From the NCBI GenBank assembly GCA_034722055.1, contig JAYENL010000012.1, positions 1 through 15,648 of the forward strand: a DNA stretch of 15,648 bases, in the 5' to 3' direction. This document shows positions 11,478 through 15,648 of the stretch, piece by piece (position 1 is the stretch's first letter; the number at the start of each line of letters is the position of its first letter). The position numbers and the translations under genes were made by a program. The notes below the pieces were generated by a model. That model was not told the origin of the DNA, made no database searches, and saw nothing but the letters and a program-made list of their open reading frames with translations. The DNA comes from Armatimonadota bacterium (GTDB lineage: Bacteria > Armatimonadota > Zipacnadia > Zipacnadales > UBA5352).

Positions 11478-13610
11478 TCACTGGACGTAGCCCATATCCT
11501 TGAGACGCCTCATGATCGCGGGTGGAACCTGCTCGCGCCCACTTCCCGTCCTGCGCGCCATCAACGCCAGTGATGCCTCAGTCCACGCCAGCAGGTCCTG
11601 CTCCATCGCGCTGGTGTCCGGGGCATGTGGCAGGCCGTGGATGTTGTGGTGCTCGCCGGGATCCTTCCGCAGATCGTACAGCTCGAAGCGCTGTGCGCTC
11701 ACATAGTAGAGGAGCTTGTATCGGCCGCTCAAGACACCCTTCCGGATGCACCCGTGACAGCAGCCCTCAAGCCAGATGCGCTTATCCGGCAGGGCGCTTT
11801 GGCCGGAGATCAGGGGAGCGATCGACCGTCCGTGCATGGCTTTGGGAACGTCGAGCCCGCACAGCTCAAGCACGGTCGGCGCCACGTCGAGCAGCGATAC
11901 CGGATCGGCGATGGTATGTCCCTCGCGCTGCCCGGGCAGGCGGATCAGCAGTGGCACGTGCAGGAGCTCGTTGAAGAGGGACTGACCGTGCTCCCAGCCG
12001 CCGTGCTCCCAGAACTCCTCGCCATGGTCGCTCCAGAGGACGATGAGACTGTGGTCCCAGAGATCGGCCGAGCGCAGCACCGCGACCAGCCGGCGCAGCC
12101 AGCGGTCGAAGAACTCCACCTCCGCCACATAAGCGTCACGGATACGCTGCCTCTCCTCCGGGGAGGAGTTAGCCCAGCCAGCCACCGTCGGTGTGCCCGG
12201 ATACACGCGTAGCTCCTCAGGCGCCGTCGGCGCGTCGTAGGGCCCGTGCGGGTCCATATAGTGCACCCAGATGAGCGCCGGACCTCCCTCCGCTCCCCCA
12301 ACCGCCTGCTCCACCACCCGCGTCACCTCGTCAGCGCGCTCACGGTCATCGACCGTGGTCAGCAACTGCCTGGGGAGCAGCCGGAGCCGGGAGAGCTCCT
12401 GACCGATTCGCAGGTCCCCGGGCACCGGCGGCACCGCCACGTGGCGAAACAGATCGAAGCCCTGGTCGGCATGGGCCGCGGTGGTCAGGTTCCCATTGGT
12501 CACCACTGCCGCGGTGGTGTATCCGGCCGCGTTCATGATCTCGGCCAGCATCTCCGCTTCAGTGTCCCACGCGTAGAGGGTGCTGTCCGCGCCTGCACCG
12601 GTCAGGCCCAGCGAGCGGGCCACACCCATCTCGGACGGGTAGCGGCTGCTGAAGAACGAGGCGAACGACGGCCTGGTCCAGGGTGCCACCGAGTACGCCT
12701 GCTCGAAGGTATAGCTTTCGGCGGCCAGACTGTCGATGTTCGGCGTCCTCACCGGGCCACCGGCGTAGCCCACGTAGTCGGCACGCAATGTGTCCACGCT
12801 GATCAGAACCACACTCGGCCTCTCCTGATCTGCCGTCGAGGCCGTGCCGCCCGAACCGCCCGGCCAGGCGACGGGCTCGTCATAGGCCCTCACCGCACCG
12901 GCGACCAGCAACGCTACGACCGCGACTGCACACGCTGCAGCGGCAATCCGCCCTCCCGCGGACCCGATGCGACCGACGGCGCCGGCCGCATATCGCGCCA
13001 CTACGGCGCCCGCAGCCCCCGCTAGGCCCGCCGCCCCGACCGCCACGGCCAGCGCCCAGACCGCCGAGGGCAGCAGGCGCATAGTCATGGCGCGCAGCGC
13101 CGCCACGAACACCCCGGAACCGACGATCACGCCGACCGCCAGCGGCACCCCGGACACTCGACGCATCCGGCCCTCGCGCACCGCCACCGCCCCGGTCAGT
13201 CCAAGACTCACCACAATGGCAGCCAGCCAGTGCCACAGATAGCTGGTCTCGAACAGTTCCTGTACGCCACAGAATGCGGCCACCGCTCCCAGGCCCAGAC
13301 CGGCCCCTGCGTTCAGAACGCCCCATGAGACTGAGCGCACGCCCGGGGTCCGACGCAGCCCGCTGAGCAGCAGCCCGAACGCCAGCCCAACTGCCGTGGC
13401 CGGCAGCACATGCATCGCAAGCGCCAGGACGAGGTGCTGCACCGTCCCGGAGGCATCCGCCGTCAGATCGATGGGCACCCCGGTGGGAGAAAGCGCGTCA
13501 TCCAGCCCGGCGACGGCCCCCAGCACCGCTCCTGCGGCAGCGAACAGACGCAGCGCCCCCTTCGGGAGCGCCTCATACTGCTCGCCGTCCACCCGGGCCT
13601 GGTCTCTCAT
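11478..13610 (-). CDS. Membrane-anchored sulfatase-like hydrolase/transferase (alkaline phosphatase superfamily)
   Basis: The N-terminal ~240 aa contain several TM helices. These are followed by [67 protein letters not shown] and a C-terminal LKDMGY. Confidence 0.88.
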
Positions 13611-13653
13611 CGCGAGTGCCTTCCCGGCATCCTGTCAGGGCGCTCACCGCCGT

Positions 13654-15288
13654 TCAGTGCCAGAAGTGCCTCATGCCGGTCATGACCATGGGGATGCCGT
13701 GCTCATTGGCGGCCGCAATGACCTCCGCGTCGCGGCGCGAGCCGCCGGGCTGAATGATCGCCGAGCAGCCCGTGGCCGCCGCCGCATCCAGGCCGTCGCG
13801 GGCCGGGAACATGGCGTCCGAGGCCAGCACCGCGCCCTGCGCCCGGTCGCCGGCCTTCCGCGCCGCGATGATGGAGCTGTCCACGCGGCTCATCTGCCCC
13901 GCCCCGCAGCCCACCAGGTGCGTGCCCCGCACCAGCACGATGGCGTTGGACTTCACGTGCTTGGCGATGCGGTCGGCGAAGACCATGGAGCGAACCTGCT
14001 GCTCGGTCGGCTCCGCCTCCGTGACCAGCTCCCACTCCTCGGGCATCACAGCCTGGTAGTCGCGCTCCTGCACCAGCATCCCGCCGGGAATGGCCCGCAT
14101 GTCCAGGTCCCGCGTGCGGCCCTCCGGGCGGAAGTCCTGCAGGACCATGATTCGCATGTTCTTCGACCGGCCCGTGAGGATCTCCAGCGCCTCAGGCTCA
14201 TAGCCGGGCGCGATGATGGCCTCGACGAAGGCCCCGATGATGGTGACGTCGGTCAGCCCGCTCTCCTCGTAGAAGCGCGGCTTGATGACCTCCTCAAGCC
14301 AGTCGCTGTTGAAGACGCCGTCGGCGGTCTCGGCGTCCACCACGCGGTTGAAGCCCAGCACTGAGCCGAAGGCCGAGACCGGATCGGCGGTGTAGGCGTC
14401 CTCGAAGGCCTGGGCCAGCGTGTCGGCCGACGCCGCGCCGCAGGGGTTGAGGTGCTTGATGATGACGGCGGTGGGCTCCTCGAAGTCCCGTGCGGATTCC
14501 AGCGCCGCGGTCAGGTCCAGGTAGTTATTGAAGGACAGCGCCTTGCCGTGGAGCTGAATGGCGCCGGCCACGCCCGGCTCATGGGCGCCCAGGTCCTGAT
14601 ACAGCGCCGCCCTCTGGTGCGGATTCTCGCCGTAGCGCAGCTCCTGTGCCCGGCGCAGCTTCGGCGCGATGACGGTCGGGAAGCCGGGCTCGTCTGTGAG
14701 CTGCTCCCGCAGGTAGGCCGAGATCGCGGTGTCGTAGCGGCAGGTCATCTCGAAGGCCGCCAGCGCCAGCTCCCGCCGCGTCTCGATGGTGGTCTCGCCG
14801 TCGCCCTGGCGCATCTCCTCGATGACGCGATCGTAGTACGAGGGATCGGGCACGACGGTGACGTCGCGGAAGTTCTTGGCCGCCGAGCGCACCATCGCAG
14901 GCCCGCCGATGTCAATCTGCTCCACGGCCTCCTCGAGGCTGGTGCCCTCCCGGGCGATGGTCTCCTCGAAGGGGTAAAGGTTGACCACCACCATGTCGAT
15001 CAGCTCCACGCCGTGCTCCTCGGCCTCGGCCATGTGCCGCTCGGCATCGCGGAGCGCCAGGAGGCCGGCGTGGATCTTCGGGTGCAGGGTCTTCACGCGG
15101 CCGTCCATCATCTCCGGGAAGCCGGTGTACTGCTCGACCGCGGTGACGGGCACGCCGGCGTCCTGGAGCGCGCGCATGGTGCCGCCCGTGGAGAGGATCT
15201 CCACGCCCATCTCCGCCAGGGCCGTGCACAGCTCGACGATCCCGGACTTGTCCGAAACGCTGACCAGGGCCCGGCTGATGCCTGCCAC
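13654..15288 (-). CDS. purH: Bifunctional AICAR transformylase/IMP cyclohydrolase
   Basis: Motifs [82 protein letters not shown] and RHF.H. The GTG at 15288 has GGAGG 7 nt upstream. Confidence 0.97.
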
Positions 15289-15310
15289 GGTCCATCCTCC
15301 CTCACATACG

Positions 15311-15344
15311 AAAAACCGCCGCCACGGGACGCCTCCCGGACGGC
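15311..15344 (-). terminator. Terminator-like hairpin plus U-tract inside the purH 5' leader (attenuator candidate)
   Basis: Minus strand gccgtc-cggga-GGCG-tcccg-t-ggcggc-gg-TTTTTcgt, between the promoter and the purH RBS. Confidence 0.6.
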
Positions 15345-15379
15345 CCTTTCGCGGCTGCTCACCTGACGGCTCGCTGGCG

Positions 15380-15408
15380 ATTATACGCCTCGCGCGGAGG
15401 GATGTCAA
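15380..15408 (-). promoter_or_regulatory. Perfect-consensus sigma70 promoter for purH
   Basis: Minus strand TTGACA (15408-15403), 17 bp, TATAAT (15385-15380). This is very unlikely by chance in ~70% GC DNA. Confidence 0.92.
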
Positions 15409-15413
15409 AACGC

Positions 15414-15610
15414 CGGGCCGGCTTCGTCGGGCCTGCCGGCCCTTCTCAGGTCGGCCCCTCCCAGGGCCTGTGACGGTACGAGGAGGGGCCGTCCTGAGTG
15501 CGACTGCGCAGCAGTCGGCCGAAGTCGGCCCCAGAGTATGCGGGCCGGCTTCGTGGGGCCTGGTGGCCCTCCTCAGGTCGGCCCCTCCAAGGGCCTGCGA
15601 GGGTACGAGG
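15414..15610. repeat. Two direct copies of a 70-nt structured repeat (15414-15483, 15541-15610) separated by a 57-nt spacer
   Basis: Ungapped manual alignment gives 63/70 identical, with a period of 127 nt. Each copy has two 5-bp ggccc/gggcc hairpins. Confidence 0.9.
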
Positions 15611-15648
15611 TCGGGACGGCGCCGGGTAGGGAACGAGTCTGGAGCGCG

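Follow-up and report, generated by a model that had tools for sequence, protein, structure and literature searches.

The window analysed here, a stretch of 15,648 nucleotides, is an entire contig of a 6.1-Mb, 93%-complete genome with 68% GC, and it carries purH (AICAR transformylase/IMP cyclohydrolase; TIGR00355 and NF002049 above cut-off) on its minus strand at 13654-15288, with a GTG start. A sulfatase-family gene, glyA, an MFS-type gene and folC follow on the same strand, and judging by orientation and spacing, purH probably heads an operon that takes in all of them; among relatives, glyA lies within 1.5 kb of purH at 14 of 29 loci. The earlier note on this DNA had claimed a perfect TTGACA-17-TATAAT promoter ahead of purH, and the claim is borne out: the -35 hexamer TTGACA (15403-15408) and the -10 hexamer TATAAT (15380-15385) agree with the consensus at 12 of 12 positions (15408-15380, minus strand), and the promoter is one of seven perfect, 17-nt-spaced promoters in the whole genome. 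Spacing to the -10 box puts the predicted transcription start at about 15375-15372, 91 nt separate the end of the promoter from the purH GTG (15288), and the Shine-Dalgarno sequence GAGGGAGG (15296-15303) is predicted to be 85% unpaired. Upstream of the promoter, and thus outside the leader, two 78-nt copies of a palindromic intergenic repeat, 87% identical and 127 nt apart, occupy 15414-15618; this repeat, REP-like in look, is found at 24 places spread over 18 contigs and forms a tandem array on contig C299.

Within the leader stands a terminator-like GC hairpin, here called P2 (15344-15318), whose 11 base pairs comprise a 6-bp basal helix (GCCGUC/GGCGGC) and, beyond one bulged U, five further pairs closed by a 4-nt loop; its folding energy of -21.1 kcal/mol (z -2.6) was equalled by 3 of 200 shuffles. 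Two unpaired G's (15317-15316) follow, then UUUUU (15315-15311) and CG, a tail (15317-15309) of the type seen at the 3' terminators of this genome, and we would predict a release or pause point at about 15311-15309. The hairpin and its U's had been described in the earlier note (15344-15311), and both are present, but the two G's between them had been passed over. A simple terminator scan of 13000-15648 gave no sites. A small 5' hairpin, P1 (15357-15374; -7.7 kcal/mol, 3 of 200 shuffles as good), contains a tandem GA/GA mismatch and had been missed; five relatives have some hairpin at this place, of unrelated sequence, and P1 has zero consensus pairs in a six-sequence alignment. In this genome only, a 7-codon frame (15325-15302, minus strand) with an SD-like word in the hairpin loop begins within the 3' arm of P2 and ends on the purH Shine-Dalgarno sequence.

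Two upstream segments had been put forward as competitors of this hairpin. A GNRA-capped stem overlapping its 5' edge is there as written, but it is weak, with 3 bp and a 7-nt loop (15355-15343) at -3.1 kcal/mol, which 69 of 200 shuffles equal. GCCGUCA (15370-15364) can indeed form 7 bp with the 3' strand, because GCCGUC occurs twice in the leader; the segment is a copy of the hairpin's own 5' arm, and the pairing would give a larger stem with the same base, ahead of the same U tract, and would not mask the 5' arm as an antiterminator would. In this genome the terminator fold is favoured by 1.5 kcal/mol over the best alternative, a margin at least as small in 13 of 100 shuffles of the upstream segment.

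Conservation of the leader in relatives had been proposed as a check on the attenuator idea; hairpin and promoter are kept across the order, and the basal stem covaries. purH is present in 64 of the 67 genomes of the order, and 62 loci were analysed after three matches truncated at contig ends had been dropped, one genome contributing two copies. A promoter with at least 10 of 12 consensus positions lies within 230 nt at 48 of the 62 loci (17/17 in the family, 4/16 in f4, 1/3 in f2), and of the 45 leaders that are 45-190 nt long, 32 have a hairpin with a pyrimidine tract within 3 nt (19 of 225 shuffles do), the detector being negative in the other 13. Across 17 leaders, picked for having the stem in hairpins of similar length, pairing in the 6-bp basal helix reaches 99% and double-sided changes number 11 vs 2.5 in shuffles (0/500), and slid registers of the alignment give zero support for covariation; because these leaders had been picked for the stem and come from related, non-independent genomes, this covariation shows a kept stem, not a probability. 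The basal GCCG/CGGC is common in the selected set, similar stems also occur at unrelated sites, and the whole is much looser than the rimP stem discussed below. Genome G008 has two full-length purH genes (contigs C6 and C27), each with a promoter and a hairpin leader, one with two hairpins and the other with one.

The surroundings of the stem are variable. Hairpins range from 20 to 54 nt, and the segment 5' of the hairpin varies throughout and is absent in many relatives. The only same-genus genome, with a purH 92% identical, has a different, non-homologous 20-nt hairpin at about +2 and none of the 5' segment of the present genome. The upstream segments had been read as functional parts of a switch, and this reading does not survive their lack of conservation. 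Aligned within the family, six leaders show two hairpins, three the second only and four only one of the first type, with a pyrimidine tract after each, and in the six two-hairpin leaders the consensus pairs are confined to the second hairpin. Outside the order, the layout was not seen at the 18 anchored loci (of 20), four of which have a promoter, three with leaders of 33-37 nt and one with a long, different leader; scans of metagenomes and genome contigs returned purH genes that are almost all distant (55-66% identity), the exceptions being two at 76-79% from Candidatus Zipacnadia (Armatimonadota), where the present genome probably belongs. Within the order, then, a strong promoter and a terminator-like hairpin are kept before purH, and the element is not a known riboswitch.

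The tail of the hairpin is U-rich. Over the 9 nt after the stem, purH leaders carry 3-7 U's (median 5; 3 U's in 6 of 32), while the 3' terminators of this genome consist of a GC hairpin and a short tail (UUUUCG, for example), with 4-8 U's in 9 nt (23 cases, selected for four T's). The stem and the tract are 2-3 nt apart in 20 of 32 purH leaders vs 4 of 23 3' terminators, a comparison that is rough because the two detectors differ slightly; the wider gap in the purH leaders suggests a deliberately weak signal.

The same layout is found before genes with no part in purine synthesis: before rplU in 26 of 42 leaders (shuffles 34/210), before ffh in 22 of 29 (shuffles 29/145) and before uvrA in 7 of 19 (shuffles 10/95), three genes picked because hairpins had already been seen there in this genome. 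Taken over all promoter-bearing leaders of the genome, 14 of 105 are positive vs 44 of 525 shuffles, which is barely above chance, and two genes chosen blind as controls had too few promoters to be informative, rpsT having one at 3 of 30 loci, with 0 of 3 positive, and pyrG at 0 of 30. The rates for purH, rplU, ffh and uvrA, together with those genome-wide, indicate that some housekeeping leaders, but not all, carry the layout. Nine sites in the genome combine promoter and terminator, purH among them; the others precede two CBS-domain genes, an argC-like gene, rplU, a BadF/BcrAD-family gene, a gene without a Pfam match and a gene downstream of a tRNA, and one is intragenic. A second copy of the purH leader was not found in the genome by blastn, and the next match of the hairpin covariance model (E 0.047) has neither promoter nor U tail. 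Beyond its training sites, the model finds similar hairpins with U tails at unrelated places, and none of the 19 matches inspected has a consensus promoter within 130 nt upstream.

Several of these other leaders are of interest in their own right. rplU (L267-L296, L357-L376) and ffh (L327-L356) each have their own conserved leader hairpin and U-rich tract and may be autoregulatory leaders; the rplU locus of this genome has no Rfam match. The two CBS-domain genes (G000:C298:18750-18850, plus; C184:30917-31020, minus) share a near-identical promoter, a terminator-like hairpin and a second hairpin before the Shine-Dalgarno sequence. A long leader at G000:C273:6413-6750 (minus), with a promoter and terminator-like hairpins before the argC-like operon and no Rfam match, is a candidate arginine attenuator. 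At G000:C122:1200-1320 (plus), a perfect promoter and then a good terminator lie upstream of genes without Pfam matches that look by eye like a phage packaging region, and the site resembles a late promoter that needs antitermination. In most family members, a G/C hairpin that lacks a U tract stands about 30 nt ahead of pyrG (L439-L468), with no promoter nearby, and may be a processing or stabilising stem.

Overall, we believe, with a probability of roughly 55%, that the purH element is a leaky terminator-only 5' leader of the rimP-leader kind, predicted to terminate and thereby to damp or pace a strong promoter. The very strong housekeeping promoter would start transcription of purH, RNA polymerase would copy the GC hairpin and then the short U tract, and because about two unpaired bases separate this tract from the stem, only some of the polymerases would stop, the rest reading on into purH and glyA. 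The operon would thus be damped or paced, in a fixed or generally tuned manner (NusA-dependent, for example), by a weak intrinsic terminator or a hairpin pause that has no sensing domain. From the layout we infer the transcript end or pause at the hairpin, the degree of leakiness and any part played by Nus factors. At the same time, conservation across the order before a purine and one-carbon operon could also mean regulated control.

The rimP-leader is a described terminator-only 5' attenuator, at least in the part of Naville and Gautheret (2010, PMC2965389) that we draw on, and the purH leader shares two features of such leaders, namely a hairpin and U tract between promoter and first gene, kept in position across species, without aptamer or antiterminator. 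The likeness has limits: the described class has a fixed stem sequence and NusA as its proposed effector, according to the same part of that paper, whereas the purH stem is only loosely fixed, and some relatives have lost it or have another in its place. The genomes studied here have a rimP leader of their own (G000:C210, upstream of 14185; loci L469-L498), a hairpin highly conserved across the order, with the stem word UGGGAGUGG at 29 of 30 loci and then an interrupted U tract, as read by eye; such interrupted tracts are common to the purH and rimP leaders of the same genomes. This rimP leader serves as a yardstick for how a terminator-only leader read by its sequence looks in these bacteria.

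A NusG-dependent pause was considered because the pauses described in B. subtilis make use of a hairpin plus a TTNTTT tract (PMC12288461, PMC8060035, in the sections used here). As those sections describe them, the NusG- and NusA-stimulated pauses and weak terminators of B. subtilis resemble the purH leader in that a hairpin within a 5' leader precedes a tract that is rich in T and often interrupted, but there the tract lies at -11 (to -6) with the hairpin 11-12 nt from the 3' end, whereas the purH T tract lies 2-3 nt past the stem. The motif-dependent pause was rejected, the tract in this genome being TTTTTC at 2 nt from the stem, the geometry off by 1-2 nt, and the tract-binding W and R missing. 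According to the portion of bioRxiv 10.1101/2022.10.21.513233 available to us, these two residues of NusG contact the T tract; both are replaced at 30 of 30 loci here, with Q-T in place of N81-T82, so that T82 is kept. The NusG in question (G000:C130:41808-42377, minus; L379-L408) may interact differently with non-template DNA. Pausing as such nonetheless stays within the preferred reading, because NusG pro-pausing without the motif is reported in the same portion of that preprint. The genome also encodes Rho and RNase J.

The main rival, which we hold to be possible and distinctly less probable than a leaky terminator, is that the hairpin does not terminate at all and belongs to a structural 5' UTR, where it guards the 5' end of the mRNA while the U-rich stretch serves as a landing site for S1 or the 30S subunit before the Shine-Dalgarno sequence. 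5' stem-loops protect mRNA and U-rich sites bind ribosomal protein S1, and the presence of RNase J fits such a role. In 14 of 32 purH leaders the hairpin begins 4-15 nt past the -10 box, about 9 nt or less from the predicted start, which leaves no space for an aptamer and, as in most rplU leaders, places the stem where a guard would be expected; where it lies further in, the 5' end is taken up by another hairpin in five family members and the present genome. In 24 of 32 leaders, 27-35 nt lie between the end of the stem and the start codon, and the tails are often interrupted by C, both of which suit a structural element. Against this, the U tract hugs the stem and not the Shine-Dalgarno sequence, 22 of 32 leaders having TTTT no more than 9 nt from the stem, and the 15-20 unpaired bases ahead of the hairpin in several leaders of family f5 would leave the 5' end unshielded.

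We regard as unlikely an aptamer-free purine and one-carbon attenuator, in which a protein or nucleotide-dependent pausing would decide whether the terminator fires, in place of a ZTP riboswitch. The idea keeps some weight because an operon of this kind is classically under ZTP control and the search for a regulator came up empty: purH is served by a promoter of its own, often with glyA adjoining as noted above, and such genes are typical of ZTP riboswitches in the accessed text of PMC7266159. Those riboswitches have purine and folate targets like the ones here and often act through a terminator, but RF01750 has no match in the leader or in this genome, nor does the 93%-complete assembly have a match to a B. 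subtilis-type PurR; the well-kept basal helix speaks for the idea as well. RF01750 does match in 3 of 41 genomes of the order and 3 of 14 controls, and the two sites inspected precede a pyruvate formate-lyase-like ORF (named by eye), not purH. What argues against such an attenuator is that none of purD/E/F/M, which follow unrelated genes on contig C241, or purL and guaB, which lie elsewhere, has the promoter-plus-terminator layout in this genome, that the stem is far less fixed than the rimP word, and that the same-genus genome has its own, non-homologous hairpin.

The leaders of pyrG, pyrC and pyrBI sense NTPs, precede nucleotide biosynthesis genes and have a terminator near the start site and no aptamer. 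The purH leaders are like them in all three respects, but show no conserved homopolymer, start-site motif or leader peptide; indeed, no conserved run, homopolymer or motif was found at the start site in 48 leaders. Stalling for want of GTP or ATP at the release point would, moreover, lower purH expression when purines are scarce, which would be the wrong sign. We also rejected start-site switching or slippage of the pyrC and pyrG type, since no position 5-14 past the -10 box has one base in more than 26 of 48 leaders, and a leader-peptide attenuator, candidate uORFs occurring in 4 of 48 leaders and at unrelated places; neither the AUG-UGA after the U tract nor the 7-codon frame from 15325 is kept in relatives. 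The tail TTTTCGT was tried as a PurR half-site, and it has no partner half-site upstream and is common in 3' terminators.

The earlier note favoured a compact switch built on a small aptamer or on competing stems, and a compact riboswitch for ZMP, IMP, PRPP or folate, perhaps embedded in the terminator as in the HMP-PP (thiS) class, now appears very improbable. The gene context would fit, an alternative fold lies just 1.5 kcal/mol away in this genome, and PMC7266159, in the part relied on here, offers the precedent of an aptamer embedded in a terminator, very short and terminator-dominated like the purH leader. That class, however, must stay highly conserved and keeps most of its nucleotides (same source and part), whereas loop, upper stem and 5' segment are free in the purH leaders: they have no conserved unpaired nucleotides or loop and no conserved aptamer 5' of or inside the terminator, the consensus pairs lying in the terminator stem alone. 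In 22 of 27 leaders the best alternative is less stable than the terminator fold by at least 5 kcal/mol, and this genome is one of the five exceptions. A conserved antiterminator was not found, 1 of 11 leaders with an upstream segment beating shuffles at 0.05, and that one resembling a register artefact. With the alternative stems unconserved and the same layout standing before non-purine genes, little is left of the switch.

Signatures of known riboswitches had been judged absent by eye, and Rfam agrees. At gathering score no family matched anywhere in the window, and at E up to 10 there were chance matches alone; all 4227 families run on the window and the purH loci of 14 relatives gave no purine or ykkC/PRPP riboswitch, and in 20 further loci there was a single match, Acido-Lenti-1, 5' of the promoter in L210. 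A fourU thermometer or anti-SD switch was rejected, 1 of 32 leaders being more paired than 90% of its shuffles, and the Shine-Dalgarno sequence of this leader being largely unpaired; purH Shine-Dalgarno sequences are more paired on average than those of other leaders of this genome (0.39 vs 0.56 unpaired). A likeness of 15366-15354 to the SRP RNA core has no Rfam match. Finally, the suggestion of an independent small RNA of about 60 nt whose promoter also reads into purH, which a perfect promoter and a terminator would indeed produce, is scarcely tenable, the product being about 30 to 75 nt in most relatives with nothing shared outside the stem, and neither a second genomic copy nor an Rfam match having been found.

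In the literature searched, which takes in few subscription papers, we found no description of such a purH leader, or of any leader in this lineage; purH is absent from the main text of PMC2965389 and appears solely as the neighbour of another motif in the part of PMC11109978 at hand, and the supplementary motif tables of PMC2965389, PMC11109978 and PMC5737381 could hold one. If the leader terminator is fixed or generally tuned, its significance is small: it is a new, conserved example, before purH and in an uncultured lineage, of a class already described. With about 90 nt and natural variants of one and two hairpins, the leader would be easy to test in vitro. We would also venture, as a doubtful and more far-reaching thought, that the purH-glyA operon of the order is gated by a weak, aptamer-free terminator whose read-through is set by an undescribed purine- or folate-responsive protein or by the unusual NusG of the lineage, and that it is one of a set (purH, rplU, ffh and rimP) that makes up a lineage-wide layer of control. 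If read-through did answer to purine or folate status without an RNA aptamer, this would matter because it would point to a new regulator, acting at the ZMP and one-carbon node in bacteria without the usual ones.
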